DNA of 13,542 nucleotides from the IMG/VR virus record IMGVR_UViG_2690315994_000027, positions 1 through 13,542 of that record; one strand, given 5' to 3'. Both the position numbers and the translations under genes were made by a program. Position 1 is the first letter of the stretch; every line of letters begins with the position of its first letter. The notes beneath the pieces were generated by a model, which searched no databases, had not been told where the DNA came from, and saw only the letters and a list, made by a program, of their open reading frames with translations. This document shows positions 1 through 13,542 of the stretch, piece after piece. This stretch comes from a virus (lineage: Duplodnaviria; Heunggongvirae; Uroviricota; Caudoviricetes).

Positions 1-342
1 ATGATGAAAAAAAGTATTCTGGCGTTTCTGTTACTCACCAGTTCTGCAGCGGCGCTGGCTGCACCGCAGGTGATTACCGTCAGCCGTTTTGAAGTGGGTA
101 AAGACAAATGGGCGTTTAATCGCGAAGAGGTGATGCTGACTTGCCGACCGGGTAATGCTTTGTATGTCATCAACCCAAGTACCCTCGTGCAGTATCCTTT
201 AAACGATGTCGCACAGAAGGAAGTTGCCAGTGGGAAGACTAAAGCCCAACCCATTTCGGTGATTCAGATTGATGATCCCAACAATCCCGGCGAAAAAATG
301 AGTCTGGCACCGTTTATAGAACGAGCTGAAAAACTCTGTTAA
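1..342 (+). CDS. yebY: Periplasmic DUF2511-family protein (YebY-like), host chromosomal gene
   Basis: 113-aa ORF with typical signal peptide ([22 protein letters not shown]); matches my recollection of E. coli YebY; stop TAA at 340-342 followed by hairpin terminator; lies next to SdsR as in the K-12 pphA-ryeA/B-yebY locus. Not searched. Confidence 0.7.
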
Positions 343-371
343 TTACCTAAAATAGCCTTTTGATTTCCAAT

Positions 372-413
372 AAAAAAACCGCCTCAGTTCTTTCACCAGA
401 ACGGGCGGTTTTT
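372..413. terminator. Bidirectional intrinsic terminator downstream of yebY
   Basis: A-tract 372-378, stem CCGCC 379-383 / GGCGG 404-408 with inner GTTCT 387-391 / AGAAC 398-402 pairing, T5 409-413. A-run on one side and T-run on the other make it usable in both directions. Confidence 0.55.
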
Positions 414-486
414 AACATTTAAGCTGATGACCACCGCGCTTTTTATTGACCATTTTGCACGCAAACTGGAAAGCCTGGCGTCGTCA

Positions 487-497
487 TCTATTCTTAA
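487..497 (+). promoter_or_regulatory. Sigma-S type -10 element (TCTATTCTTAA) for SdsR
   Basis: Sequence resembles the RpoS -10 consensus TCTATACTTAA; sits 4-6 nt upstream of the proposed sRNA 5' end at about 501; no good -35, as is common for sigma-S promoters. Confidence 0.45.
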
Positions 498-500
498 AGG

Positions 501-603
501 GCAAGGCAACTAAGCCTGCATTAATGCCAACTTTTAGCGCACGGCTCTCTCCCAAGAGCCATTTCCCTGGACCGAATACAGGAATCGTATTCGGTCTTTT
601 TTT
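501..603 (+). ncRNA. sdsR: SdsR (RyeB) RpoS-dependent small RNA
   Basis: About 103 nt non-coding stretch beginning GCAAGGCAACTAAGCCTGCATTAATGCC and ending in a perfect terminator hairpin plus T8; matches my memory of E. coli SdsR/RyeB and its genomic context beside yebY. Boundaries approximate. Confidence 0.6.
571..603 (+). terminator. Intrinsic terminator (3' end of SdsR)
   Basis: Perfect 9-bp stem ACCGAATAC 571-579 / GTATTCGGT 587-595, 7-nt loop, then CTTTTTTT 596-603. Confidence 0.75.
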
Positions 604-604
604 A

Positions 605-631
605 ATTGTATTTAAAATCAATCAGTTGCAA
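605..631 (-). promoter_or_regulatory. Predicted minus-strand sigma70 promoter, candidate promoter of the antisense RNA RyeA/SraC
   Basis: On the minus strand: -35 TTGCAA (plus 626-631), 15-16 bp spacer, -10 TACAAT (plus 605-610). A transcript would run antisense across SdsR toward the bidirectional terminator at 372-413 (about 225 nt). Confidence 0.3.
616..628. promoter_or_regulatory. IHF consensus site in the attL P' arm
   Basis: AATCAATCAGTTG fits WATCAANNNNTTR exactly; lies between the presumed core (SdsR 3' end) and the tandem arm repeats, like H' in lambda attP. Confidence 0.45.
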
Positions 632-636
632 ACGTC

Positions 637-668
637 TCCCCGAAATTCCCCGAAATTTACTCGAATTT
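637..668 (+). repeat. Three tandem ~10-bp direct repeats, candidate integrase arm-type binding sites
   Basis: CCCCGAAATT at 637-646 and 647-656, degenerate third copy ACTCGAATTT at about 658-668; located 70-100 bp downstream of the int stop codon, analogous to lambda P'1-P'3. Confidence 0.45.
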
Positions 669-734
669 CTGTATTCCGGTCTTTTTTGGTTATATCACAA
701 CCAAAATACATTTAACAATCCATTTACGTTAAAA

Positions 735-1811
735 TCAGAGCAATAAGTACGTTTTTTCTCTCTCATCAAGATACATTTTTGTTGTCTTCTCCGATGTGTG
801 GCCAAGTAGACGCTGAGCAAATTCTTCTCCACATGTTTCTTTGTACAATCGTCCAGCCAGACTTCTGATCTCGTGAAAAGTTGGTGGGTTTTCACTGAAC
901 TGGATACCTGTTAATTTTCTGGCTGCGACAAATTTTTTTGTCAGGCCATCCGGGTGAATGCTGCCGTCAGGGCTGTTTTTTCTAATTCCGGCACTGATTA
1001 GAAAATCTCCCCGGCTTACCAGGCGGCACCGTTCAACTACTGTACCAAGACGTAGACCAGCGACAGGAAGGCTGAGTGACAGGGGGATAGCAATCATCAT
1101 TCCTGTCTTAATTTGCCTGATGTGGAGACGATCATCATAAATCTCACTGAACCGCATATTCGTTATGTCTTCGCGACGTTGTCCTGTTACAAGGGCTAAG
1201 TCCATAGCTAATGGGAACCATGCCGGAAGTTGATCTGCTGCCTCCCTGATGCAGTTGTATGTCTTTAGTTTCAGTCGTTCTCTTGTAACTACTATTTTCG
1301 GTGCTCTTGTTGGCGTTACTGGATTTTGAGATATACGTCCTTCAACAATGGCCTCGCGAAACATATCAGACAACACAGAACGCATTGATCCTGCCATTGT
1401 GTTTTTCCCTCCTTCAATCCACAAATCAAGAAATTCGGCAATATGGCGAGTGGTTATTTCTGTCAGTAAAATCCCTCCTAATTTTTCTTTTATTGTCTCC
1501 AGTTGATTTACCCGAGTTTTATAAGTATTTCTGGACACTTTTCTCCTTATAAGAATTGTTTTGTAACGTTCAATCCAGTCTGCCATAGTAAATGAGTCGA
1601 ACCCTTTAAGTTTTTCAATTAAGGCAGCAGGAGAGTAGTTTTTGTATATATAATGATTTGCTTCAATTGCCTGCGCTACTGCATCTCTTCTTGAAATTTT
1701 ACCTAGTGTAAATTCTTCTTTCGTCAGAGGGTTGCGCCAGTAATATGCTTTGTCTCTCCTTCGATATGTTAAGTTTCTAGGCAAATTGGGATCGTATTTT
1801 TTCCGCTGCAT
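735..1811 (-). CDS. int: Tyrosine site-specific integrase (lambda Int family)
   Basis: 358 aa; N-terminal arm-binding-like region ([27 protein letters not shown]) resembles lambda Int; C-terminal catalytic motifs ([11 protein letters not shown]... [14 protein letters not shown]) with terminal Tyr; adjacent to the att arm. Confidence 0.95.
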
Positions 1812-2058
1812 TTTTTAACTTCTCCAGTAACGGACTGTCTCTCCCTTGTCGCCCATTGGGCTGATGGTGTGTTATATCGGTATCAACCTTATTCGGGTTG
1901 ATATAGAAAGCCTCCGGAACTACCCTGTAACTCCTCCCGTGTAGTTCAGGTGCAGGATAAATGTTTCCATTCCTTGCCCACCGTCTCAGCGTTGATATTG
2001 ATGGTGGGTTATCCGGATATCTGAGTTTTCCCCACGTTTTGAGCGTCACAAGATTCAT
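1777..2058 (-). CDS. xis: Excisionase (Xis)
   Basis: About 93 aa; LTLKTWGKL...STLRRWARNGNIYPAPELHGRSYRV resembles lambda Xis (LTLQEW...VRRW...FPPP...GREY); 3' end overlaps the int start by 35 nt; start ATG at 2058 chosen because AAGAGG lies 7 nt upstream (the track's ATG at 2064 has 1-nt spacing). Confidence 0.8.
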   Translation of the reverse strand: MNLVTLKTWGKLRYPDNPPSISTLRRWARNGNIYPAPELHGRSYRVVPEAFYINPNKVDTDITHHQPNGRQGRDSPLLEKLKNAAEKIRSQFA

Positions 2059-2164
2059 TGCCATACCTCTTACGATATGACCGCCAGTAAATATACAGAA
2101 TACTGGCGGGTGTGGTTGATTTTTAATAATCAGCTATGAAGTTCTAATTTGTATATAATGCAAC

Positions 2165-2353
2165 TCACGAGGACAGAAGTTTCTCGCAATTAAAATTTAT
2201 CAGCTTTACTTTCTGCTCTCTGGACACGCCTGCTTCTTTTTTCCCTGAGAGCATTTTTTCGCATTCTGATTTCGTTAATTTAGATTTTGAATATCTTGTC
2301 CAGTTAGTAGGAGTGCCACCTTCTTTTTCAATAGTGGCAGTAATTTTATACAT
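2165..2353 (-). CDS. Small basic hypothetical protein (62 aa), translationally coupled to lar (position of Rac ydaC)
   Basis: ATG at 2351-2353 lies inside the lar 3' end (ATGTATAA overlap) with GGAGG 5 nt upstream; the track's longer 86-aa version starts inside lar in another frame. Confidence 0.5.
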   Translation of the reverse strand: MYKITATIEKEGGTPTNWTRYSKSKLTKSECEKMLSGKKEAGVSREQKVKLINFNCEKLLSS

Positions 2354-2540
2354 GAACACCTCCATTATTATTTCCAGTAGTTCGTTTATTCCATCTTTCG
2401 AGTGCTTCTTTTTCACTTCCACCATAGCCAGTTCGGGATTCGCATCCGTTGCATTTTGCCCGGTAATATCCTGAAATTGCTTTCACCGTAACAGATGGAC
2501 AACCACAAAACGGACATGGTTTAACATCGTCATATCTCAT
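2346..2540 (-). CDS. ralR: Lar/RalR restriction-alleviation protein (zinc-ribbon; reported toxin of the RalR/RalA type I TA pair)
   Basis: MRYDDVKPCPFCGCPSVTVKAISGYYRAKCNGCESRTGYGGSEKEALERWNKRTTGNNNGGVHV, 64 aa from the ATG at 2540; CPFCG...C..C motif typical of the Lar family; the track's start at 2552 adds 4 residues; neither start has a strong SD. Confidence 0.8.
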   Translation of the reverse strand: MRYDDVKPCPFCGCPSVTVKAISGYYRAKCNGCESRTGYGGSEKEALERWNKRTTGNNNGGVHV

Positions 2541-2595
2541 AATTTTTGTCATAAAAACTGTCTCACGTTGGCGGGCATTACACCGCCAGGCTGAA

Positions 2596-3405
2596 TTATT
2601 CTTCTGAATTATCGATTACACTGTATTCCCCGGTTAATACAGAGGAGTCTGCCGGATCGATTGTCAGTGGTTCCTTTTCATCCATTGATACTGCACGCTG
2701 GATTTCAATTGAGACAGGCAGGTATTTAAACAGGCGACGAATAGCCGTTTTTTTTGCCATTTCTTCCCAGTGAGTTACCCACGGCCCGTTATTACCAGCC
2801 TTACTCTGGCTGCGCACCAGTTCAATCTGTTTGCGCGTCATAACTTCAAACTGAGTCCCTCCGTCTTTCAGTCTTGCGACAGCATAGACGTGGGTCACTG
2901 GTGCATCTTCGTTTTCTCCCGGGCGGTGTATTAACTTTTCATCAAGGCCAAATTCAAAACTAAACTCGTCACCTTCACGGACAACACGGGCTGACAGGCT
3001 GGCGATTTGACCAGAACGGCGAGCCAGATCAATCATGCCGCGATAACCAATGATTAGCTGAACGTTCTTTTTACCGCTCTTTTCGTTTTTATTACCAAAA
3101 GGCAGTAAATATGCGTGGCCGAGGGCGCTACCTGGCTCAAGGCCGAGCTGTGAACACTGAACGATCGCACTGACAAAACTCATGGTGTCACAGTTTCCTA
3201 GCGCCGGAACCTTACGAATTTCTGTGGTGGCGATACGTATCATTCGTTCAGCCGTCATATGGCGTGGGAGAGCTGCTGCCAGTTGCTCTTTCATTGATGG
3301 CTGATTAATAAAGCTGATCACGTCGTTATTTTTTACTGCTGCTGGTGCACGGTTTCCCTGGGTTTTTTGCAGATCGGCTTTTGCGATAGGTGGTTGCTTA
3401 GTCAT
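2596..3405 (-). CDS. recT: RecT single-strand annealing recombinase
   Basis: 269 aa from [24 protein letters not shown]...; recognised as E. coli RecT; AAGGAG 7 nt upstream of the ATG at 3405; start overlaps the recE stop (3398-3400). Confidence 0.95.
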
Positions 3406-6076
3406 TTGCATACTCCTTAGCCCAGCGGGGCAGTGATAACGTTTTAATAGCTGGCCATTCATCGGTATTCAGGCAGTCAGCCAGGGTCCTCAGATTGCGG
3501 TGATATTCCTGCTGGCCTGCCAGTTTTGCTTCTTCGCCCATCATGAAAATCTCAACCGGGTAACGTCCGCATTCAACAGTTGTGCTGGCAACCAGAAAAA
3601 CGAAAGTTGGCAGCACACCAAACTGTGCTTCATAACCGTCACTGTAGAATGCATCCTGAACGTGATAGCGGTAGTCGTAATAAGCCGTTTTGAATCGTTG
3701 AATATCCGCTGTGGTTTTCACGTCCATGATCCAGTGAAATTCAGGGATAATTTTGTCCGGACGGCACCGACACAAAATTCCTGTTTCAGGATCTTCCCAG
3801 TAAATTGATGATTCAGCGTGTCCGGCGCTTTCAACAAGCCATTGACCCAGCGGCAAAGCCATAACGCTCTGATACATGAGTTCAATTTTCCGGCCTTCTT
3901 CGGCAGTGATAACCGTTTTTCCTGTGCTTGCGCATTCCATCAGAAACGCTTTCTCCTCTTCTTTTCCGGCGGTTGTACGGCGGTTAAATTCAGGTGCCAC
4001 GATAAAGCGGTTACTGAATTCTTCCGGTTCAAGTACACGGCAGTGGAAAGCGGTTCCTAAATCGAGCGTTTTTGTCTTTGTGGTGTCCACTGGGGCATTT
4101 TTACGCCACAAATACAGAGCCGGAGTATCAGCAATGTCGTCGAGCTGAGACTTACTGACACCGGGACCCGCGTGGTAATTCTCATTCGAAATTCCGTAAT
4201 AAATACCAGGCTCTATGTCTCCTGCGATTACGGGATCTGCGACTTCGCCAGTTTCATCACTGCAATCGCGATGCGGATCGCTGCCAGCATTCTCCTTGTG
4301 TGGATGTTCAGCGCCTTCCATTTTCTCCGGCTCATTTTCCCGAACTTCAACCTGATTCTCGTCATCGAATGTTTCCTGATATGTTGCGTCGCCCATCACC
4401 GCACCACAGTCAGGGCAGTTATCCCCGCCAGACTGACCGCAGGCGGTGCAAACTTTCTCCGTTTCCTGTTGTTGCACTACTGGCTCAGGCTGTTTCGTTT
4501 CTGGCTCGTTTTGTTGCGTATTTGGGTCGTTCTGTTCCGCTTTCTGGTCGTTCTGTTCCGTTTCTGGCTGATTCTGGTATATAGAGTCGCGGGTCTGGAT
4601 CCCCTTAACCCATTTCGGGTCATTCGGGTCGCTAATCCCTTCAACAAATTCTCCGCGAGAGGCAGCCAGTAATTTGTCTGCATCGACAGGATTTTTTGGC
4701 GGAATGTTTTTCCGGGCTTCATGGAGTTCTGCCCGCAGTTCCAGATATTTCGCATCAACAGAATTTACCTGTGACTGAGCATCCAGCGGCTGCGTGTCCT
4801 GATGATGTTCAGTTGCATCCGGTTCCACTGTTTCAGCCGTTGCCTGTTCATCTGCCATTGCGCCAGATGGTTGCGGTTTTTCTTCGTCATCCTGTTTTTC
4901 TTCTTCTGTTACACGCTGCGGCATCGGGGCAGAGGAGCGACCACAGGCAATATCCACGATTTCTGGATCAGGGTTGGCATGATCGGTTTCAATAAGTACC
5001 TTGTTCAGATATTCAGTGACATGCGCAGTGATGACCTCGATACCAATTGGTGCTTCTTTCACGGCCGCAACCACGATGGCACGGGAATAATCCAGCCCAC
5101 CAGGCATGGCGATGAATTTGTCGCGGAAAACAGAAAAGGGCGGTTTATTTTCAGCGATAATTTCCTCGACACGTTTAGCGTGTGCCGGATGAAGGTTATA
5201 AATGTCCACGTCCATTGAACGAGCCAGTACGCCAGTGGCTACGTCGCGCGCCAGTGACGTCAGATCGTGAACGAAACCTTCGCCGCGATCGGTGAGGTTC
5301 CCGCCGCCAGCATTAGCGCCGGAAGCCGTGCGCGTGATGCGTGAAACACGATTTCCTTTCATCCACTCTTTTGTCAGCAGACCGCGATCGGTGTAGTCTG
5401 CGTCCAGGTATGCTTCGAAAAAAGCAGTCATCAGCCCCAGACTTGAATTGCCAGGATTAGGGAAAACTTTGTCAGTATCACGAACCAGTCTGTGAAGATC
5501 GCGAATCTCCAGCGGGTCGAGCAGGCTGGTTTTGTGGGAAACAGCCAGGGCAGTAACAGCTGGTAGTTCTTCAGCCCGTGCAATATGTAATACCTGGAGT
5601 TCGTCACGTGAAACGTGCGTTACCGGTTTTTCGCTGCCGTGTTGAGCAAGCCAGCGAATGGACAGCTCTTGGCCAGAAATCGGGAGTGGCATATTCTCCT
5701 CAATCTCAGTCATGTCTTCGCCATTAACATTGGTATTGTCAGTGCTGGCTGTTTTGTCCTGCGCAGAGGATGAGGGCGCGATAAATACCATTGTGATGCC
5801 ATCTTCCCCGCCTTTTTCGTAACGGTTGCAGAATTCCGTATCAAATACGCCTTCTGGTGGGAGGTCATCAACAACGGGCAAATTGACGCGAACAGGTTTT
5901 TTGAAGTCATCTTCATCGTATCCAGCATCGTCAATCGCAACAGCACCACGGGAGATGGCAATGGATAATTTTTTCGCTTCAGCCCAGTAGAAACCGCCTT
6001 TAATACCGAGACGTTTTCTTACTTTGTCATTTTTTGCTTCGTAATACAGTGGGTAAACTTGTTTATCGGTGCTCAT
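3398..6076 (-). CDS. recE: RecE exonuclease VIII (5'-3' dsDNA exonuclease)
   Basis: 892 aa; long central and C-terminal stretches ([42 protein letters not shown] ... [10 protein letters not shown]) match my recollection of RecE; the N-terminal about 100 aa and a linker repeat appear to differ from the K-12 protein as I remember it. Confidence 0.95.
4484..4567 (-). repeat. Four in-frame 21-bp tandem repeats inside recE (heptad peptide repeats [28 protein letters not shown])
   Basis: Direct repetition visible in the DNA (GGTCGTTCTGTTCCGCTTTCT / GGTCGTTCTGTTCCGTTTCTG / related flanking units); frame preserved. Confidence 0.7.
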
Positions 6077-6146
6077 TGTTTTTTAACCTCAACTCAGATT
6101 AAAATTAATGCGAGTGATGAATAAATGTCCCAGGTTCTTCACTCAG

Positions 6147-6175
6147 GCCTGCACAGTGTGCAGGCTTTCTTTTTT
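6147..6175 (+). terminator. Plus-strand intrinsic terminator between recE and racC (no upstream plus-strand gene)
   Basis: Perfect 8-bp GC-rich stem GCCTGCAC 6147-6154 / GTGCAGGC 6158-6165, 3-nt loop, then TTTCTTTTTT 6166-6175. On the minus strand the hairpin is followed by TGAGTGAAG, so it is orientation-specific for the plus strand. Confidence 0.6.
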
Positions 6176-6450
6176 CAGATTTCACCTTTTAATTTCATTG
6201 CAATCAGAGTTGCCAGAAATTCGGCTTTTTTTTCTGCGGGCAGATTCTTTCCTATGTGCACCAGACACATTTTTTTAACACCATCGTTAAGTGTTTTAAC
6301 GTTGCCTGATGGACCGTCGATATCAACCACAGTGAATGGGGTTTCTTTATTTTCTGTCTTAATCACGTAGCCAATACGCTTTCCTTCCAGGGTAACTTCG
6401 TGAACAATGTCATCAGTAGTAACAACAGTGGCTTCATAACTGGTAATCAT
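6175..6450 (-). CDS. racC: RacC-like protein (91 aa)
   Basis: MITSYEATVVTTDDIVHEV... from the ATG at 6450 with AAGGAG 6 nt upstream; length and sequence match my recollection of Rac RacC; the track's longer ORF adds 16 N-terminal residues without an RBS. Confidence 0.75.
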   Translation of the reverse strand: MITSYEATVVTTDDIVHEVTLEGKRIGYVIKTENKETPFTVVDIDGPSGNVKTLNDGVKKMCLVHIGKNLPAEKKAEFLATLIAMKLKGEI

Positions 6451-6524
6451 GTTTTTCTCCTTAATTAAGGTTGAGCGAATCCCTGCCATTGCTGGCATAA
6501 ATTCAGTTTCGGATAGTCAGTTAA

Positions 6525-6695
6525 TTAAAGTTCGTGTGCCATCTGGTCTTTTTCGGCACAGATTTCACTACAATATTTTTTCATTTCCGTCGTTGGTATA
6601 ACTCCACGCATGAAATGAAGTGGTCTTGTAATGATTTTGCTTTCTTCAATTTCTTTATTGCAAAGGTGATAAGCACATTTTATTTTCTTAGTCAT
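6525..6695 (-). CDS. ydaE: YdaE-like small 4-Cys protein (56 aa), not in the supplied ORF track (<60 aa)
   Basis: Hand translation of the minus strand: [56 protein letters not shown]; the ATG overlaps the kilR stop as TAATG; GGAG 8 nt upstream; Cys at 7, 12, 42, 46. Confidence 0.6.
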   Translation of the reverse strand: MTKKIKCAYHLCNKEIEESKIITRPLHFMRGVIPTTEMKKYCSEICAEKDQMAHEL

Positions 6696-6916
6696 TACCA
6701 TGACTCCGCCTTTACAGGTAAACCATCACGACCGAGGAAGACTCTAATCATGCAGTCAGAAATGCATGTTTTTGTAGTCAGGCTACGAATATAAAGTTTT
6801 CGCTTTTTAATATTGTTTGCCGAGGCGATATATGTCCGACCTTCATGAAGAACATAATCGCCAGGGGTCACACACTGACGTGGTATTTCATCAGTTCCGA
6901 AGTGATGAGCAATCAT
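6695..6916 (-). CDS. kilR: KilR (Rac killing protein, cell division inhibitor)
   Basis: 73 aa from [46 protein letters not shown]...; matches my recollection of KilR; GGAGAT 6 nt upstream of the ATG at 6916. Confidence 0.8.
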
Positions 6917-7081
6917 AATTATCTCCATTTTTACAAATGAATTTTGTCGATGCGGTGCCTGGTGCCTCCAGGTGACGTTAACCAGTTAACAATTAACGCC
7001 GGATAATCCACCCATAACACTGATGCTTTTAACTGTGCTGCGTGCGCTTAGCCGCATTCACCGCATCACAAAATTCACTTT

Positions 7082-7125
7082 AAAAAGGGGCGGCAGGGCA
7101 GCCACGGAGTAGAACTGATGCCGCC
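7082..7125 (-). terminator. Possible weak terminator for leftward transcription (tL-like)
   Basis: On the minus strand: GGCGGCA ... 23-nt loop ... TGCCGCC then CC and T5 (plus A5 at 7082-7086). Long loop and CC spacer make it weak. Confidence 0.25.
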
Positions 7126-7250
7126 AAAGACTACACATAGCAATTGTCGTTATTTACAACCGGAGGCGCACTCCCACCATTTAAATTTAACAGACAAGAC
7201 CGACTCTTTATGAATACCGGAAATGCGCCTTCGTGTTGTGCGCCTGTCTT

Positions 7251-7278
7251 TTTACCACTTCAGGCTCGGTGGTATACT
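7251..7278 (+). promoter_or_regulatory. Predicted promoter with extended -10 (TGgTATACT) for the 64-aa plus-strand ORF
   Basis: -35-like TTTACC 7251-7256, 16-bp spacer, TG 7270-7271, -10 TATACT 7273-7278; ORF start at 7313 with AAGG 7 nt upstream. Confidence 0.35.
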
Positions 7279-7312
7279 GGAGTTCTCACACAACCAGTAA
7301 TAAGGTATTCCT

Positions 7313-7507
7313 ATGGATAATAAAGACAAAGCCTGGCTACTTGCTTTAGCTTTCAGCATCAGATCGCAGCGAGAAACAACTCATCAAGAATTTTTCTCGG
7401 AAATCGAGAATGCTGAGAATGAGTTTTTGTCACTACTCAATGAACGTGATGCTAAAAAAAGCGCCGATTCACTTAAGGCTTGGGCGAAACTAGGCTCTTC
7501 AAAATAA
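7313..7507 (+). CDS. Hypothetical 64-aa protein, opposite orientation to the surrounding leftward operon (position occupied by sieB in Rac/lambda)
   Basis: ORF with its own predicted promoter and a modest RBS; protein-like composition; no recognised motif. Confidence 0.4.
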   Translation: MDNKDKAWLLALAFSIRSQRETTHQEFFSEIENAENEFLSLLNERDAKKSADSLKAWAKLGSSK

Positions 7508-7691
7508 TTGCTTCTGTAGCGGCATGAACAACTGTTTTTGCCGCCTCTTCAACTTCCTTGTCTGGACGACCAGCCTTTACTTTTTCTGCAATGACATCCA
7601 GCACAGTTGGAAGAACCTTGCTAATAAGCATGGCTGCCACATCTTTGCTGCACAATTGACCGTTAATAACAACCAGATCTTCACCAACCAT
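7473..7691 (-). CDS. Hypothetical 72-aa protein, first gene downstream of the predicted leftward early promoter
   Basis: ATG at 7691 with AAGGGG and 7-nt spacing; A/V/E/K-rich composition; the track's longer version begins with TTG at 7748. 3' end overlaps the convergent 64-aa ORF by 35 bp. Confidence 0.4.
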   Translation of the reverse strand: MVGEDLVVINGQLCSKDVAAMLISKVLPTVLDVIAEKVKAGRPDKEVEEAAKTVVHAATEAIILKSLVSPKP

Positions 7692-7865
7692 CTTTTTTCC
7701 CCTTAACGCCGGGTGGCGGAACGTTTTATCTACTGCGCTTTGTATCAATCAACAACTGCCGTCATGTTCGTATGCCTCAGGCTGGCTACTTAGCCCTGTT
7801 CAGTGGCTGGATAACTCGAGGAATTGTCCAGCCGTTCTCTGGTGGGGCGTTGTTTGGATATGCTT

Positions 7866-7894
7866 ATTAAACACAATACGTTTTCTTATGTCAA
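7866..7894 (-). promoter_or_regulatory. Predicted leftward early promoter (pL analogue)
   Basis: Minus strand: perfect -35 TTGACA (plus 7889-7894), 17-bp spacer, -10 TTTAAT (plus 7866-7871); overlapped by two copies of the operator-like motif. Confidence 0.5.
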
Positions 7895-7907
7895 CACGAA
7901 ATGTGTT
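7870..7907. promoter_or_regulatory. Two operator-like 15-bp sites (OL analogue), centres 23 bp apart
   Basis: AACACGAAATGTGTT at 7893-7907 (palindromic arms AACAC/GTGTT) and AACACAATACGTTTT at 7870-7884; same motif and spacing as at the rightward promoter. Confidence 0.45.
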
Positions 7908-7936
7908 TTGTGGTGGATGTCATATGATGATGGTAC

Positions 7937-7960
7937 AAAAAAGCCCGCTGATAGCGGGCT
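7937..7960 (-). terminator. Intrinsic terminator of the repressor gene
   Basis: Stem GCCCGCT 7943-7949 / AGCGGGC 7953-7959 with 3-nt loop; on the minus strand followed by T6 (plus A6 at 7937-7942); 32 nt downstream of the repressor stop. Confidence 0.7.
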
Positions 7961-7990
7961 GATTGGCATATTACTGTGATAGCAAGATCA

Positions 7991-8410
7991 TTACTCCGGT
8001 GGGGGATTATCTTTAAGCCTGCCTCTCAAATATTTTTCTACATACTCATCGATTTCTTTTAGCCGGACTTCAAATAGCTCAATCATTCGTTGTTGTTCTG
8101 AGCCCGGTAGCTGGTTAAACAACTCAAGAAGTTTTCGTTGGGATTCATTTAACCACAATTCAGAAGATTCCTGTTCTCCAAAGAGGAGCTCAGGAGGAGA
8201 TATGCCAAGTGCCTTTCCCAATACGACAGCGTCATGCACTCCAACATTTCTGCTGCCCGCCTCATAGTTACCTATACGCGATTGCGTCCATCCGCAGATT
8301 TCAGCAAGTTTTCCTTGAGATAAACCAAGCTTCTGCCTGCGCTCTTTAAGACGCATTGCAATTTTGTCATTGAGCCTACTAGCGGCAATTTTTTCGTTTT
8401 CTTTTTCCAT
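7991..8410 (-). CDS. Phage repressor, XRE/Cro-C1-type HTH, no S24 peptidase domain
   Basis: 139 aa; HTH segment LKERRQKLGLSQGKLAEICGWTQSRIGNYEAG; divergent from the Cro-like gene; no Ala-Gly / Ser...Lys autocleavage module recognisable in the C-terminal half. Confidence 0.85.
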   Translation of the reverse strand: MEKENEKIAASRLNDKIAMRLKERRQKLGLSQGKLAEICGWTQSRIGNYEAGSRNVGVHDAVVLGKALGISPPELLFGEQESSELWLNESQRKLLELFNQLPGSEQQRMIELFEVRLKEIDEYVEKYLRGRLKDNPPPE

Positions 8411-8421
8411 TGCATCCTTGT

Positions 8422-8436
8422 ATCACGAATCGTGAT
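8422..8436. promoter_or_regulatory. Perfect 15-bp palindrome ATCACGAATCGTGAT in the repressor leader
   Basis: 7-bp arms around a central A; 12 bp upstream of the repressor start codon; different sequence from the AACAC-type motif. Confidence 0.45.
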
Positions 8437-8444
8437 TTACATAA

Positions 8445-8488
8445 AACACAAAACAGCTTGACCATATAACACAAGATGTGTTTAAAAT
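8445..8488 (+). promoter_or_regulatory. Predicted rightward early promoter (pR analogue) with two operator-like sites (OR analogue)
   Basis: -35 TTGACC 8458-8463, 17-bp spacer, AT-rich -10 region 8481-8488 (TTTAAAAT); near-perfect palindrome AACACAAGATGTGTT 8468-8482 in the spacer and a weaker copy AACACAAAACAGCTT 8445-8459, centres 23 bp apart. Confidence 0.5.
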
Positions 8489-8506
8489 TGTCATCGGAGG
8501 TTTTCA

Positions 8507-8749
8507 ATGAACAAAATTTCAACATATCGAAAACAGCTTGGGCTGTCTCAAAGACAACTTGCTGTTCAGTTAGGGTGGATACAAAGCCGACTGGCAAATT
8601 ACGAAGCAAATTTTCGTACCCCTGGACTAGAGGAGTGCAGAAAAATTGTTTCTACCCTTAATCGGCTTGGCGCTCATTGTGGACTTGACGATGTATTCCC
8701 CCCAGACGGTAAGCATAGCGAAAACAGCATAGGAGCGGTTGATTCATGA
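8507..8749 (+). CDS. Cro-like HTH (XRE family) protein, 80 aa (YdaS-like position)
   Basis: HTH segment YRKQLGLSQRQLAVQLGWIQSRLANYE; GGAGG 6 nt upstream of the ATG; divergent from the repressor; stop overlaps the next gene start (ATGA). Confidence 0.8.
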   Translation: MNKISTYRKQLGLSQRQLAVQLGWIQSRLANYEANFRTPGLEECRKIVSTLNRLGAHCGLDDVFPPDGKHSENSIGAVDS

Positions 8750-9168
8750 AAATCAGGCATGAGCACATCGAATCAGTGTTGTTAGCCCTGGCAGCCGAAA
8801 AAGGGCAGGCGTGGGTCGCTAACGCAATTACTGAAGAATATCTGCGCCAGGGGGGCGGCGAATTGCCCCTTGTACCAGGCAAGGACTGGAACAATCAGCA
8901 GAATATCTATCACCGTTGGTTGAAAGGTGAAACGAAAGCGCAAAGGGAAAAAATTCAGAAACTGATCCCTGCGGTTCTGGCAATTCTTCCGCGCGAGCTG
9001 CGTCACCGACTCTGCATCTTCGATACCCTGGAACGCCGTGCATTACTGGCGGCGCAGGAAGCGTTGAGTACGGCAATTGATGCGCATGATGATGCAGTCC
9101 AGGCCGTTTACCGGAAAGCACATTTCAGCGGTGGTGGGTCGCCCGGTGATTCTGTGGTGGTGCATTGA
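8746..9168 (+). CDS. ydaT: YdaT-like protein (140 aa), positional and reported functional analogue of lambda CII
   Basis: MKIRHEHIESVLLALAAEKGQAWVANAITEEYLRQGGGELPLV...; length and sequence match my recollection of Rac YdaT; ATGA coupling to the Cro-like gene. Confidence 0.75.
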   Translation: MKIRHEHIESVLLALAAEKGQAWVANAITEEYLRQGGGELPLVPGKDWNNQQNIYHRWLKGETKAQREKIQKLIPAVLAILPRELRHRLCIFDTLERRALLAAQEALSTAIDAHDDAVQAVYRKAHFSGGGSPGDSVVVH

Positions 9169-9226
9169 AGGTGGGGAACTATGCCGAATCGTATTTATTC
9201 GGCATTGGAAGATGTGTTATGTGCGA

Positions 9227-9442
9227 TTACGATTTTTTACCTGTTGCGCATTCATACGCTTTTGTAAGTGCGCTTATGAGCCCTGGAACATTTGCTATAG
9301 GTATATTCACTGATTCAGCAATTCCATATTCTGGATCAGGACTATTAGGGCATTCGTCAACGGTGATTATGAGCGCGTCAATTTCTTCGGTGTATTCAAC
9401 TGTTATTTGAGATTGGTGGGGGGCGGCGATAAATGTTTGCAT
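9227..9442 (-). CDS. Hypothetical small acidic protein (71 aa, about 10 D/E versus 3 K/R), opposite strand to the flanking replication operon
   Basis: ATG at 9442 preceded by AGGAGGAAGG; fills the otherwise empty 290-bp gap between ydaT and the O-like gene; predicted own promoter at 9507-9536. Confidence 0.45.
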   Translation of the reverse strand: MQTFIAAPHQSQITVEYTEEIDALIITVDECPNSPDPEYGIAESVNIPIANVPGLISALTKAYECATGKKS

Positions 9443-9460
9443 CCTTCCTCCTAAGGTTAA

Positions 9461-10276
9461 GTGGTTGTTATGTCGGCACTACCTTACATGCAATTGTATA
9501 TAGCTGATTATCTGGCAGATACCATGCATTTGTCTACAGAAGAGCACGGCGCGTATTTGTTGCTGATGTTCAATTACTGGCAAACAGGAAAGCCAATACC
9601 CAAAAACAGGTTGGCAAAAATTGCCCGTCTGACTAACGAGCGATGGGTTGATGTTGAACCATCCTTGCGGGAGTTTTTTTGTGATAACGGCGACGAATGG
9701 ATGCATCTTCGGATTGAGGAAGATCTGGCATCTGTCAGAGAAAAATTAACCAAAAAATCAGCCGCAGGAAAAGCATCTGTTCAGGCCAGAAGAAGCAGAA
9801 AGGAAGCAGATGTTCAAACAAAACAAGAGAGAAATTTAACAGGTGTTCAAACAGATGTTGGAGTGGTGTTTGAACATGATGCCAACACAAAGGCAACTAA
9901 TAAAGATACAGATAAAGATCTAAAAACAGATCCCCCCCTAAATCCCCCCCGGGGGAATCGAGGTGTCAAAAAATTTGACCCTCTGGATATTTCTTTGCCG
10001 AACTGGATTTCTGTCTCGCTTTGGCGTGAGTGGGTTGAATTTCGCCAGGCATTGCGAAAACCGATTCGAACGGAGCAGGGCGCTAACGGGGCTATACGGG
10101 AACTGGAAAAATTCCGTCAGCAGGGTTTTACACCTGAGCAGGTGATTCGACACAGCATCGCCAATGAATACCAGGGCCTGTTCGCGCCGAAAGGTGTTCG
10201 GCCTGAGACGTTGCTCCGACAGGTTAACACCGTCTCGTTGCCGGACAGTGCGATCCCGCCAGGCTTCAGGGGGTAA
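9461..10276 (+). CDS. Replication initiation protein, lambda O-like / DUF1376 (YdaU-like)
   Basis: 271 aa; position immediately upstream of the DnaC-like gene; central low-complexity linker containing iteron-like repeats; start may be GTG 9461 or ATG 9470 (both have weak RBS). Confidence 0.75.
   Translation: MVVMSALPYMQLYIADYLADTMHLSTEEHGAYLLLMFNYWQTGKPIPKNRLAKIARLTNERWVDVEPSLREFFCDNGDEWMHLRIEEDLASVREKLTKKSAAGKASVQARRSRKEADVQTKQERNLTGVQTDVGVVFEHDANTKATNKDTDKDLKTDPPLNPPRGNRGVKKFDPLDISLPNWISVSLWREWVEFRQALRKPIRTEQGANGAIRELEKFRQQGFTPEQVIRHSIANEYQGLFAPKGVRPETLLRQVNTVSLPDSAIPPGFRG
9507..9536 (-). promoter_or_regulatory. Predicted minus-strand promoter inside the 5' end of the O-like gene (position of lambda pO/oop)
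   Basis: Minus strand: -35 TAGACA (plus 9531-9536), 18-bp spacer, -10 GATAAT (plus 9507-9512). Confidence 0.35.
9809..9930. other. Candidate replication origin inside the O-like gene: iteron-like repeats plus an AT-rich stretch
   Basis: TGTTCAAACA at 9811-9820 and 9844-9853, inverted copy TGTTTGAACA at 9867-9876, followed by the AT-rich segment 9885-9930; analogous to lambda ori within gene O. Confidence 0.4.
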
Positions 10277-10282
10277 CGGACC

Positions 10283-11029
10283 ATGAAAAATATTGCGACA
10301 GGCGGCGTTCTGGAACGCATCCGCCGACTGACCCCGCCACATGTAACCGCCCCATTCAGAACGGTAGCGGAGTGGCGCGAGTGGCAACTTGCTGAAGGCC
10401 AGAAACGTAGCGAGGAGATCAACCGCCTGAATCGCCAGTTGCGGGTGGAAAAAATTCTGAATCGCTCAGGCATCCAGCCGTTGCACCGTAAATGCTCGTT
10501 TGCGAATTACCAGGTGCAGAACGACGGTCAGCGATACGCGTTAAGCCAGGCGAATTCCATCGCCGATGAACTGATGACCGGGTGTACAAATTTTGCGTTC
10601 AGCGGAAAACCTGGTACCGGGAAGAATCACTTAGCGGCAGCTATCGGGAATCGCCTGCTGAAAGACGGTCAGACAGTGATTGTGGTTACCGTGGCTGATG
10701 TTATGAGTGCCCTGCATGCCAGCTATGACGACGGGCAGTCAGGCGAAAAATTTTTGCGGGAACTGTGCGAAGTGGATCTGCTGGTTCTTGATGAAATTGG
10801 CATTCAGCGCGAGACGAAAAACGAGCAGGTGGTACTGCACCAGATTATTGATCGACGGACAGCGTCGATGCGTAGCGTGGGAATGCTGACAAATCTGAAC
10901 TATGAGGCCATGAAAACATTGCTCGGTGAGCGGATTATGGATCGCATGACCATGAACGGCGGACGCTGGGTGAATTTTAACTGGGAGAGCTGGCGTCCGA
11001 ATGTCGTCCAGCCAGGAATTGCGAAGTAA
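10283..11029 (+). CDS. DnaC-like helicase loader / IstB-type AAA+ ATPase (YdaV-like)
   Basis: 248 aa; Walker [16 protein letters not shown], Walker B LLVLDEIG; 7 nt downstream of the O-like gene. Confidence 0.9.
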
Positions 11030-11051
11030 TTTTTACCGGGAGAAAAATTTA

Positions 11052-11813
11052 ATGGAGACTGTTTTTGACGCACTGAAAGCAATGGGAAAAGCCACATCCA
11101 TAGAACTTGCTGCGCGACTTGATATCAGTCGGGAAGAAGTGCTGAACGAACTATGGGAACTGAAAAAGGCTGGTTTTGTTGATAAAAGCGCGTACACCTG
11201 GCGTGTGGCTGATAACAACGTTCAGCAGGAACAGCCAGCGCAGGCAGAACTGCCGGAAGAAACCACCACAGCAACAGTAGCGAAAATCTCAGAGTGCGAT
11301 TTAACCGCGACGATTGAACAACGCGGACCACAAACGGCTGATGAGCTGGCTACATTGTTTGGTACCACATCACGCAAAGTGGCTTCAACGCTGGCAATGG
11401 CAATCAGCAAAGGTCGTCTGATTCGCGTAAATCAGGGCGGTAAATTTCGTTACTGCATACCGGGCGATAATTTACCAGCAGAGCCGAAAGCGGCATCGGT
11501 AGCGGAAACTGATGGTAAAGCCTTTCCTCAGCCTGCATGTGTTGCGTTACCAGTACAGGAAGCTGCAACACAGGAAGATATTAAAACAGAAACTGTGGCG
11601 GACATTGTGCAGTCGCTGCCATCGTTCACCGAAACGCGATCGGATGACCTGATTTTACCATCGCTGCATATGGCAAACCGCGAACTGCGTCGGGCGAAAA
11701 GTCATGTCCAGAAGTGGGAGCGAGTCTGCGCCGCGCTGCGGGAGCTGAACAAGTACCGGGATATTGTCCGACAGATTGTAGATTCCTCCAGTCGTATTGT
11801 GTCGGAAAAGTGA
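11052..11813 (+). CDS. Hypothetical protein with two winged-helix-like segments (YdaW-like position)
   Basis: ATG at 11052 with GGGAG upstream (the track start at 11001 overlaps the DnaC-like gene); segments ...[29 protein letters not shown]... and ...[30 protein letters not shown]... look like wHTH recognition helices. Confidence 0.65.
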
Positions 11814-11828
11814 TTGCCGGAGGCGCTT

Positions 11829-12251
11829 ATGGCAAAAGTATTTACACCAAAAGATCGGGAAAAAATTAAAGGGCAGGTTGTTGAACTTGTACGTCTGAGC
11901 GGTCGCGAGACGTTACGGGCTCTGGAGGCTAAAACCGGTGCATCAAGGTATTACATAAGCACTCTCGCCAGAGAATTGGTCGCCAGTGGTGATGTTTACA
12001 ATTCAGGCTACGGATTATTCCCGTCTGAGCAGGCGCGTAAAGACTGGCAAAACGCCCGCAAAAAACTATCAAGGGCAAAGGTGAAGAAACCGGTTGTGGT
12101 TGATCCTGACCTTATCTGGTCATTACCAGACGGAGAAATACGTCGTTACAACAGACGACAGAACATAATCTGTCGCGAGTGCCGGAATAGTGAGGTTATG
12201 CAGCGAGTGCTGGCGTTTTATCAGGGGAGTTTTCAGGAGGTGGTGCTGTGA
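11829..12251 (+). CDS. Hypothetical protein, 140 aa, with an N-terminal winged-helix-like segment
   Basis: ATG at 11829 with GGAGG 5 nt upstream (the track start at 11814 is a non-ATG codon directly after the upstream stop); ...ETLRALEAKTGASRYYISTLARELVASGDV... Confidence 0.65.
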   Translation: MAKVFTPKDREKIKGQVVELVRLSGRETLRALEAKTGASRYYISTLARELVASGDVYNSGYGLFPSEQARKDWQNARKKLSRAKVKKPVVVDPDLIWSLPDGEIRRYNRRQNIICRECRNSEVMQRVLAFYQGSFQEVVL

Positions 12252-12308
12252 GTGAAATTAGCTATCAGGCTTCAATTGCCGCTGGCATTCGCATCAAAGG
12301 AGAGGTGC

Positions 12309-12665
12309 ATGGAAATAAAACCAGAAGATGAGTTAAGTAATATTGTTTTATTTCCGGTAAAAGAGGATGACCCACGTAATCAGGTTAATTTTCTTTATGA
12401 GCCATCGGAAAGACCATACTGCCATCACGCTTCTGTCCGGGTTGACGAAAAAGAGCGTCAGGTCCGCTGTAAAATCTGCGGTGCAGTTGTGGAGCCATTT
12501 GACTGGATGCTCTCTGTGGCGAAAAGAGAAACCAGGCTGGCAGATGATGTAAAACTATTGCGCCAGGAGGAACAGGAAAGGCGAAAAAATATAGAAAAGC
12601 TAATTCAGATTGAGCGTAACGCGAAAGCGCGGATACGCAGGGCGACAAAAGCCAGAACTGAATAA
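12309..12665 (+). CDS. Hypothetical zinc-ribbon protein with a basic coiled-coil-like tail, 118 aa
   Basis: ATG at 12309 with AAGGAGAGG upstream; C-H-H...C-x2-C cluster (PYCHHASVRVDEKERQVRCKICG) and a K/R/E-rich C-terminus. Confidence 0.65.
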   Translation: MEIKPEDELSNIVLFPVKEDDPRNQVNFLYEPSERPYCHHASVRVDEKERQVRCKICGAVVEPFDWMLSVAKRETRLADDVKLLRQEEQERRKNIEKLIQIERNAKARIRRATKARTE

Positions 12666-12760
12666 TTAAATTTAGCACTGCAAATAAAATTTAATCCTTA
12701 ACCGGAGGGATTTCTGCATCCTCAGAACATCAGGAGGCCGCCCGAAAGGGCGGTAGTTAA

Positions 12761-12943
12761 ATGTGAAAGTTTAAAATAATTATTGAAACGGGAATAGCCG
12801 GTGGAGATTTCGAGGATGAATTCGAAGTGGATGATGATGCGACGCCTGATGAAATATATGACGAAGCAAAAGATATTTTCTTTAACTACTGCAATTACTC
12901 ATATCACGAAATAAAAGACGAAGAGGAAGAACAAAATGGCTGA
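12761..12943 (+). pseudogene. Acidic small ORF with ATG-TGA at codons 1-2 (start-stop), then 58 sense codons in frame; possible nonsense pseudogene or non-canonical initiation
   Basis: SD AGGAGG 12732-12737, GNRA-loop hairpin CCGCCC-GAAA-GGGCGG 12738-12753, ATG 12761, TGA 12764; in-frame continuation KFKIIIETGIAGGDFEDEFEVDDDATPDEIYDEAKDIFFNYCNYSYHEIKDEEEEQNG ends at TGA 12941-12943, overlapping the next ATG (ATGGCTGA). Confidence 0.35.
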
Positions 12944-13112
12944 TTTTGGTTCAACTAAATACAACGTCAGTTTTGAAGAATGGCATGAACTGTTAATGGA
13001 CTATGCAGAGTTACGTGGTGGCAGTGCTGCTGATGCTGAAGCATGGCGTGATGATTATGAAGCAGGAAAAACTCCGGTCGAAGCATATTGTGATGAGTGG
13101 GGCGATGAATGA
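12936..13112 (+). CDS. Hypothetical small acidic protein, 58 aa, not in the supplied ORF track (<60 aa)
   Basis: Hand translation MADFGSTKYNVSFEEWHELLMDYAELRGGSAADAEAWRDDYEAGKTPVEAYCDEWGDE; GAGGAAG 6 nt upstream; stop overlaps the next gene start (ATGA). Confidence 0.5.
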   Translation: MADFGSTKYNVSFEEWHELLMDYAELRGGSAADAEAWRDDYEAGKTPVEAYCDEWGDE

Positions 13113-13468
13113 GCGAGATTAATTATCAGGAAGGGCATGAAAAGGCAGGGCAGGCAAAACCAGTGGCATGGCGATATCGCTACGTGAAAAAAGGCGTTAC
13201 GGACTTTCAGGAGAAGATGTGGGTTGGTGACTGGAAATATGTACCGACAAAAGAGGATTGTAACGACAGGCCGAACTATGAAATTCAGGCGTTATTCACT
13301 GCCCCGCCTGTGCCACTGACACCAGAAGGATTGATTAAAGCAGTGCGCTTCTATGAACTGGTTAAGCGTGAGAATCCGCCAGTTGAAACCGGAGCATGGA
13401 AAGACGCTGTTGACTGGGTGCTCAAAGAGGCTTGCCAGGCTGTAAACATTGGCATCAAAGGAGAGTGA
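13109..13468 (+). CDS. Hypothetical protein, 119 aa
   Basis: ATGA-coupled to the upstream small ORF; no recognised motif. Confidence 0.65.
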   Translation: MSEINYQEGHEKAGQAKPVAWRYRYVKKGVTDFQEKMWVGDWKYVPTKEDCNDRPNYEIQALFTAPPVPLTPEGLIKAVRFYELVKRENPPVETGAWKDAVDWVLKEACQAVNIGIKGE

Positions 13469-13470
13469 GA

Positions 13471-13542
13471 ATGCAAATTTCACCGGTTACTCTTCGTGTT
13501 GCGAAGGCGTTTATATCCAGACATCACCGACACAATAAACCC
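13471..13542 (+). CDS. Hypothetical protein, 5' fragment only (runs off the window end)
   Basis: ATG at 13471 with AAGGAG 7 nt upstream; MQISPVTLRVAKAFISRHHRHNKP...; truncated by the window. Confidence 0.4.
   Translation, partial: MQISPVTLRVAKAFISRHHRHNKP

Follow-up and report, generated by a model that had tools for sequence, protein, structure and literature searches.

The origin of replication of phage lambda lies within gene O, where four 18-19-bp iterons are accompanied by an AT-rich tract, and its activity involves formation of the O-some and recruitment of P-DnaB. Origin repeats placed within the gene of the very protein that binds them, beside an AT-rich stretch, are also found in gene 18 of P22, gene 38 of SPP1 and in lactococcal and lactobacillus phages; the likeness of these initiator-gene origins to the locus described below is one of principle only. 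Here, we analysed a 13,542-nt stretch of viral DNA (IMG/VR record IMGVR_UViG_2690315994_000027, positions 1 to 13,542; hereafter "the window"), which Pfam and PHROG gene assignments identify as the early region of a Rac-like lambdoid prophage. Inside its initiator gene, a member of the YdaU/DUF1376 family, an array of short repeats runs into an A-rich tract. We consider it likely, on the strength of sequence comparison, that the region 9811-9930 is the replication origin of this Rac-type lambdoid prophage, situated within its own initiator gene and orthologous to the oriJ-carrying region of Rac in Escherichia coli K-12.

Phased repeats and an A-rich tract inside the initiator gene

The features of the locus are as follows, in window coordinates.

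9470-10276, + strand: initiator gene of the YdaU/DUF1376 family (268 amino acids), with a predicted winged-helix N-terminus, an array-bearing linker and a DnaT-like/"O-like" C-terminus ending in IPPGFRG
9470-9769, + strand: coding region of the predicted winged-helix (DUF1376) DNA-binding domain
9650-9659, strand not assigned: solitary upstream site GATGTTGAAC, a remnant of "cluster A" (see below)
9811-9820, + strand: site 1, TGTTCAAACA, a near-palindrome TGTT-CA-AACA, intact in 33 of 39 unique Rac-type sequences
9838-9863, + strand: core block AACAggTGTTcaAACAgaTGTTggag, composed of a half-site AACA (9838-9841), site 2 and a degenerate site GATGTTGGAG (9854-9863)
9844-9853, + strand: site 2, TGTTCAAACA, intact in all 39 Rac-type sequences
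9867-9876, - strand: site 3, the inverted copy (TGTTTGAACA on the + strand), aligned with GTTTGAAC, GTTGGAAC or GTTGAAC in homologues
9884-9898, + strand: phased half-sites AACA (9884-9887) and AACT (9895-9898), 11 bp apart, running into the A-rich tract
9893-9930, + strand: A-rich low-stability tract GCAACTAATAAAGATACAGATAAAGATCTAAAAACAGA with NNAGAT hexamer repeats, a candidate DNA-unwinding element
9930-9955, strand not assigned: ATCCCCCCC twice, 12 bp apart, and the palindrome CCCCCGGGGG, encoding DPPLNPPRG at the module junction

The original prediction had described two direct copies and one inverted copy of a 10-mer within 66 bp, followed by an AT-rich segment and placed in the linker-encoding part of an "O-like" gene. 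All of these elements were recovered. TGTTCAAACA is matched without mismatch twice on the + strand (9811-9820 and 9844-9853), and TGTTTGAACA, its reverse complement, lies at 9867-9876; together the copies span 66 bp and are the sole matches in the window, even with one mismatch permitted. The outer copies lengthen to a perfect 11-nt inverted repeat, ATGTTCAAACA/TGTTTGAACAT. Among 500 dinucleotide-preserving window shuffles, none contained a 10-mer three times (on either strand) within 70 nt. In the 807-nt gene the array lies at nt 342-429, between the segments coding for DUF1376 (amino acids 8-90) and for the C-terminal domain (from about amino acid 158), i.e. in the linker.

The array (9811-9898) extends beyond the three copies first reported: besides these exact 10-bp near-palindromes, it has a degenerate site and phased half-sites. 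Its additional parts are GATGTTGGAG at 9854-9863 and the half-sites at 9838, 9884 and 9895, to which the upstream GATGTTGAAC at 9650-9659 may be added. Spacings between the sites are 33, 12, 11, 11 and 11 bp, and the whole can be described as GTT-N(1-2)-AAC near-palindromes and AAC(A/G) half-sites lying about 11 bp, or one helical turn, apart. Scanning for promoters and terminators gave nothing beyond shuffle expectation and nothing inside the array. A search against Rfam returned no significant match, a single sub-threshold fluoride-riboswitch match in the downstream gene ydaV being judged as chance.

The segment that follows the repeats (9893-9930) has a GC content of 26%, with 58% A and 16% T on the + strand, within a gene of 47% GC, and belongs to the lowest 2.4% of 38-nt windows by GC. 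Two GATC (Dam) sites, at 9917-9920 and 9929-9932, lie in it 12 bp apart; homologous tracts carry from one to three such sites (three in locus L009). The reverse strand of the tract, GATCTGTTTTTAG, agrees at 9 of 11 specified positions with the oriC 13-mer consensus, GATCTnTTnTTTT, a resemblance to be read as a lead and not as a result.

The predicted resemblance to lambda ori inside gene O was borne out, as both position and tract composition nearly coincide with those annotated for lambda. The lambda iterons are found at nt 349-433 of gene O in the annotated record, compared with nt 342-429 for the array in the window, and the lambda A-rich tract at nt 434-479 (GC 0.26, A 0.57, T 0.17), compared with nt 424-461 (GC 0.26, A 0.58, T 0.16). 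In both cases the origin, or candidate origin, is embedded in the interdomain-linker segment of an initiator gene, which itself comes after a cII-like gene and before a helicase-loader gene. As in the lambda type, at least three repeated sites with dyad symmetry are set in helical phase, and a strand-asymmetric AT-rich tract is located directly downstream of them. The two initiators also share a two-module logic, in which the N-terminal domain goes with the sites and the C-terminal domain with the loader.

The differences are nonetheless clear. Sites in the window measure 7-10 bp at 11-12-bp spacing, whereas lambda iterons measure 18 bp at 20-24-bp spacing; the A-rich tract of the window carries GATC sites; in many lineages the domain-coding part holds another cluster, about 160 bp upstream; and the loader is a DnaC-like AAA+ protein instead of lambda P. 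Furthermore, the N-terminus of the initiator belongs to DUF1376 and not to the lambda O family. The label "O-like" consequently held for gene position, for the C-terminal half and for function by analogy, but not for the N-terminal domain. Since only the C-terminal half is O-like, the feature would work in the manner of lambda ori while standing outside the lambda O/ori sequence family.

Conservation of the array among homologues

Genome collections, viral contig collections and GenBank phages were scanned, yielding more than 100 loci, and about 40 diverged homologues were compared. The 120 matches listed by the first homologue search were all at least 96% identical, and diversity came from a second search conducted with the Bordetella phage homologue. 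Across 18 diverse homologues the first 330 nt of the gene are on average about 73% identical, and the linker DNA still aligns in a phased pattern, TAAC(G/A)nn(C/T)GTTC-AAC(G/A)Gn(C/T)GTT(G/A)A...(C/T)(C/G)GTT(T/G)GAAC..., continuing as ...AAC...AAC(T/G)AATAAAGAT, then (NNAGAT)n and finally GATCTAAAAGA. The motif AAC(T/G)AATAAAGAT...GATCTAAAAGA is near-invariant, and the array terminates in the likewise near-invariant AACTAATAAAGAT...GATCTAAAAGA tract.

In the same 18 homologues, third-position conservation in the linker was 0.79 and amino-acid conservation 0.67, the corresponding values for the N-terminal domain being 0.62 and 0.86. The linker thus exceeds the N-terminal domain in third-position conservation (Mann-Whitney p = 1.2e-4), and the constraint therefore acts on DNA: what is preserved in the array is its nucleotide sequence and not the peptide that it encodes. 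Its periodicity is strict. In the linker, AAC pairs were counted 65 times at lag 11, 37 times at lag 22 and at most 14 times at any other lag, and lag 11 was encountered once elsewhere in the genes; in homologues the repeats recur every 11 bp over six to seven turns. As 11 is not a multiple of three, the copies fall into different reading frames. In Rahnella, for example, CGACCGTTCAACG occurs three times and is read as DRST, TVQR and DRST.

These data bear on the simplest alternative, namely that the repeats result incidentally from the coding of a low-complexity, repetitive linker peptide (DVQT...GVQT), with the inverted copy arising by coincidence. The two direct copies, 33 bp apart, do share a frame and both encode V-Q-T, and the copy number of the NNAGAT hexamers, which encode (T/K/P)D, is variable, as in slippage-prone sequence. 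However, three motif copies appeared in none of 5000 synonymous-codon shuffles of the gene, with protein and codon usage unchanged, and a peptide repeat cannot yield an inverted copy. Neither does this explanation accommodate homologue copies in all three frames at 11-bp spacing, nor third positions that are more conserved than the amino acids, and we regard it as extremely unlikely.

Two classes of half-sites can be distinguished: AACA/TGTT in the window, K-12 Rac and a Citrobacter group, and AACG/CGTT in most other Enterobacterales and a Pseudomonas phage. The lineage of the window is set apart from the others by an insertion of 11+1 nt, which accounts for the extra upstream site at 9811 and for a two-base centre (GTTCAAAC, against the one-base GTTCAAC). 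In the alignment the copy at 9811 (site 1) is confined to the Rac lineage, site 2 aligns to a GTTCAAC site present in nearly all homologues, and the AAC columns of the half-sites at 9884-9898 are invariant among the 18 diverse sequences. It should also be added that amino acids 84, 87, 95, 104 and 108 of the initiator (window 9719-9795) differ completely between the AACA and AACG lineages, residue 84 being R in the latter and E, D or N in the former; these differences may reflect base contacts but are confounded by phylogeny, and we did not use them as evidence.

Many lineages have a second cluster of sites, cluster A, about 158-160 bp upstream and within the domain-coding part of the gene, of which the window retains the one site at 9650-9659. 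In other lineages it comprises three CGTTG sites 11 bp apart, and pairs of GTTG were counted 19 times at lag 11, 8 times at lag 22 and essentially never at other lags. The DNA-level evidence for cluster A is weaker than that for the linker array, because it overlaps the invariant residues V62, E63 and L66 and part of its signal could be driven by the protein. Another sequence resembling an array site, GATGTTCAAT, is located within the codons of the LLMFNYW motif (9566-9574, CTG ATG TTC AAT). Nucleotides at this position are near-invariant across homologues, with GTTCAAC in the Rahnella loci and in locus L104, and it may represent a further site or mere codon constraint.

The initiator protein and exchange of its modules

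The initiator matched Pfam DUF1376 (PF07120) over amino acids 8-90 with an E-value of 9e-25 and a score of 87.3 bits, against a cut-off of 30.1, and this was the only Pfam family found in the N-terminal half, where no lambda O family match was obtained. Its PHROG matches were "primosomal protein" and "replication initiation O-like", and the C-terminal half, from about amino acid 158, is common to replication protein O of Gifsy-1, SPN3UB, mEpX1 and others. When PDB sequences were searched, using both the complete protein and a profile of its N-terminus, only the DnaT-like C-terminus was matched and nothing significant was obtained for the N-terminal domain. Structure prediction with AlphaFold2 from the single sequence reached a predicted local distance difference test score (pLDDT) of 50 and was unusable for this domain; with an alignment of 70 sequences, used instead, the pLDDT rose to 88. 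The top fold matches of the latter model were all winged helices, including ORC/Cdc6, a plasmid initiator and the N-terminal domain of DnaD, and the DUF1376 domain is accordingly predicted, at the level of the model, to be a winged helix.

The last 17 residues of the protein, VNTVSLPDSAIPPGFRG (10222-10273), are almost the same as those that end E. coli DnaT, VNTVSEPDSQIPPGFRG (PDB 2ru8 and 9zbt; E-values 0.002-0.009). DnaT itself differs in having no origin-binding domain and in acting after PriA/PriB at stalled forks, whereas in the window the module is fused to a predicted winged helix. Other C-terminal modules of the DUF1376 family match Pfam DnaT (PF17948). Among related loci, a tail of the VNTVSLPDSAIPPGFRG type was seen only in initiators followed by a DnaC-like gene, which suggests that the tail contacts DnaC or the DnaB-DnaC complex.

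In phages of Pseudomonas, Moraxella, Ralstonia and Bordetella, at 26-44% protein identity, arrays built on AACGACCGTTCAAC lie at the corresponding place in the gene. The arrangement is kept even where protein identity is only 26-37%: in Moraxella phage Mcat30, AACGACCGTTCAAC occurs four or five times with 11/22/11-bp spacing at gene nt 379-436, and in Ralstonia UAM5 and Bordetella IFTN2 arrays of GTTCAAC precede (AACCAG)n tracts. Where the DNA-binding part is different, the motif is different as well. An Acinetobacter phage with a differing DNA-binding part carries CGAATGGGTTC at the same position. In loci L024-L026 (a Pseudomonas metagenome-assembled genome, Phytobacter and Kosakonia), DUF1376 and the A-rich tract are separated by an inserted T5orf172/MUG113 domain, at gene nt ~320-640; in this variant the GTT-N-AAC array is absent and CGTAGTAGCTACG palindromes are present instead (L026, positions 3406, 3432 and 3648). 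Four further loci, L022, L023, L028 and L029 (Mixta, Erwinia, Shigella and E. coli), combine an unrelated N-terminal domain with no Pfam match and the C-terminal module of the window, and have a GTAACGC/GCGTTAC palindrome at the equivalent position, in two clusters about 190-210 bp apart. The winged-helix fold of the model and the shift of the motif upon change of the N-terminal domain both lend indirect support to the initiator as the candidate protein binding the repeats.

On the other side of the linker, at least four different C-terminal modules occur in combination with the DUF1376 N-terminal domain and linker. Where the module ends in IPPGFRG, a DnaC-like gene comes next; behind the other modules lies a gene of the lambda-P family, so that the same N-terminal domain and array occur with either type of loader (lambda-P in L014, L015, L020 and L038; DnaC-like in the window, L007, L008, L009, L026 and L034). 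Crossover between the loader-type modules is located just past the GATCTAAAAG tract: Rac-type sequences with other C-terminal modules part ways directly after GATCTAAAAG, and proteins with another N-terminal domain join the C-terminal module of the window at ...DPPLNPP..., just past the A-rich tract, which places the point of exchange between N- and C-terminal modules at 9930-9955. Similar junction peptides, DPPLNPPKGK and DPPLPPRGN, were observed in proteins with other N-terminal domains.

Such junctions, falling directly after the tract (...GATCTAAAAG / DPPLNPP), together with a tract common to genes with at least four different C-terminal modules, would also be expected if the linker DNA were a module-boundary or recombination sequence, kept or recently spread by homologous exchange and bound by no protein. 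We find this very unlikely. Had the sequence spread recently, its third positions would not be expected to surpass in conservation those of the neighbouring N-terminal region, which belongs to the same module. The strict 11-bp phasing is left unexplained too, as is the finding that, with a different DNA-binding domain, unrelated motifs take up the same position and phasing. Moreover, lambda ori is also an exchange point between O modules, and the roles in origin function and in exchange are compatible.

For the reading as an origin, the following sequence of events may be envisaged. Dimers of the initiator would bind, through their predicted winged helices, the phased sites along a single DNA face, forming a nucleoprotein complex comparable to the lambda O-some. 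This complex would strain and open the adjoining A-rich tract, upon which the DnaT-like/O-like C-terminal domain would recruit the DnaC-like loader (10283-11029) with host DnaB. By analogy with lambda, the N-terminal domain and the array would constitute one specificity unit, and the C-terminal domain with the loader a second, exchangeable one.

Prophage context and the position of oriJ

The replication gene pair is embedded in the following genes.

735-1811, - strand: integrase
2596-3462, - strand: RecT
3398-6076, - strand: RecE/exonuclease VIII
7991-8410, - strand: helix-turn-helix repressor
8507-8749, + strand: YdaS-like helix-turn-helix protein
8746-9168, + strand: YdaT/CII-like protein
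9165-9410, + strand: 81-amino-acid open reading frame with a TTG start, between the ydaT-like gene and the initiator gene
10283-11029, + strand: DnaC/IstB-like helicase loader, homologue of YdaV (Pfam IstB_IS21, E-value 7e-20; PHROG "DnaC-like helicase loader"), presumed partner of the C-terminal domain of the initiator
11001-11813, + strand: DUF1627/YdaW protein

The order integrase, recT, recE, repressor, ydaS, ydaT, ydaU, ydaV, ydaW is that of Rac in K-12 MG1655. The initiator gene is 96-98% identical to E. coli ydaU, a gene which occurs in 1503 of 5426 complete E. coli genomes, and its orthologue in K-12 Rac (96% amino-acid identity) has the same three 10-mers, at 11512, 11545 and 11568 of that locus (L001), and the same A-rich tract. 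Gene order and identity of 96-98% thus identify the region as orthologous to the replication region of K-12 Rac. The prophage in the window differs from K-12 Rac in its integrase region and in the extra open reading frame at 9165-9410, for which neither Pfam nor PHROG gave a family match, and which has no counterpart in K-12 Rac, as ydaT and ydaU are adjacent there.

Rac has been reported to possess an active origin, oriJ (PMC3945230), and the feature in the window is very probably its orthologue. A literature search on oriJ, YdaU and DUF1376, which did not reach Potrykus 2000, found neither a base-pair position for oriJ nor a function for YdaU. The candidate prophage origin of the original prediction draws support from the conservation among homologues, the lambda-like layout and the orthology of ydaU. 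Absence or non-conservation of the repeats in homologous genes had been named in advance as the outcome that would speak against it; when the comparison was run, the repeats proved to be kept as DNA, in 11-bp phase and in shifting frames.

A number of observations nevertheless weigh against an origin at this position. The sites, at 7-10 bp, are far shorter than classical 18-22-bp iterons. When separate 40-bp stretches of the window are ranked by instability, the A-rich tract comes only 12th; the 11 less stable stretches are all outside 6950-12300, the tract being the least stable one near the replication genes. Among the 39 unique Rac-type sequences, polymorphic sites per nt amounted to 0.28 in the array and 0.16 in the N-terminal region, and site 1 was altered in six of them; the missing depletion of polymorphism lends no support to the array, with the caveat that many Rac-type prophages are cryptic. 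Rac of K-12 has, furthermore, been termed replication-defective (PMC11014345; bioRxiv 10.64898/2026.09.06.749655). Finally, the primers framing "oriJ" in PMC3945230, the only ones with this label in the literature searched, yield 155 bp within ydaV, about 700 bp downstream of the array (L001 12241-12395, corresponding to window ~10540-10694).

The last point leads to a rival interpretation, in which the array is a genuine binding site for the initiator or another phage protein and serves regulation rather than origin firing, be it autoregulation, a transcription roadblock in the replication operon or handcuffing with the upstream cluster, the origin being elsewhere, e.g. in or beyond the DnaC-like gene. 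The placement of the oriJ primers inside ydaV agrees with this possibility, and the second cluster found in many lineages about 158-160 bp upstream could serve looping or regulation. Nor is there a DnaA box close to the array: none with less than one mismatch was detected within about 30 bp of it, and the nearest one-mismatch match is at 9964. On the other hand, a repeat search of the intergenic neighbour (9100-9480) and of ydaV revealed nothing ori-like, neither repeats nor an AT-rich tract, while the array adjoins a conserved A-rich tract, as lambda ori does. The primers themselves fail to locate the origin, since a 155-bp quantitative PCR amplicon 700 bp away still reports origin-proximal amplification, and their label gives no base-pair position, as the ydaV amplicon holds neither repeats nor an AT-rich tract. 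We therefore consider a purely regulatory array to be unlikely, and retain the origin at 9811-9930 as the probable interpretation.

A broader picture, to which we would give even chances, is that DUF1376/YdaU constitutes a widespread family of phage initiators, whose winged helix reads 11-bp-phased GTT-N-AAC (or lineage-specific) sites in its own gene. These sites would often form two clusters about 158-160 bp (~15 turns) apart, one of them overlapping the codons of the domain itself, and the domain would be fused to exchangeable DnaT-like or lambda-P-binding modules. If true, the bipartite spacing of the clusters would imply wrapping or looping of origin DNA, and the overlap of sites and domain codons would mean that the site and the protein reading it constrain each other's evolution (e.g. 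V-E against V-Q at GTTGAAC/GTTCAAC). The literature searched contained no description of DUF1376 as a winged-helix origin-binding initiator with sites in its own gene. It is this family-wide picture that is the more novel part; the feature itself would be expected by a specialist and overturns nothing.

Should these interpretations be true, DUF1376, which is encoded by thousands of prophages including Rac of K-12, would gain a testable function, namely origin binding at defined sites, and the long-known and poorly mapped oriJ of Rac would be pinned to about 120 bp. The family would provide a second, independent case of the lambda design, in which a module of N-terminal domain plus sites recombines with different helicase-loader modules, and this would aid the annotation of prophages, the prediction of origins and studies on the shuffling of phage replication modules.

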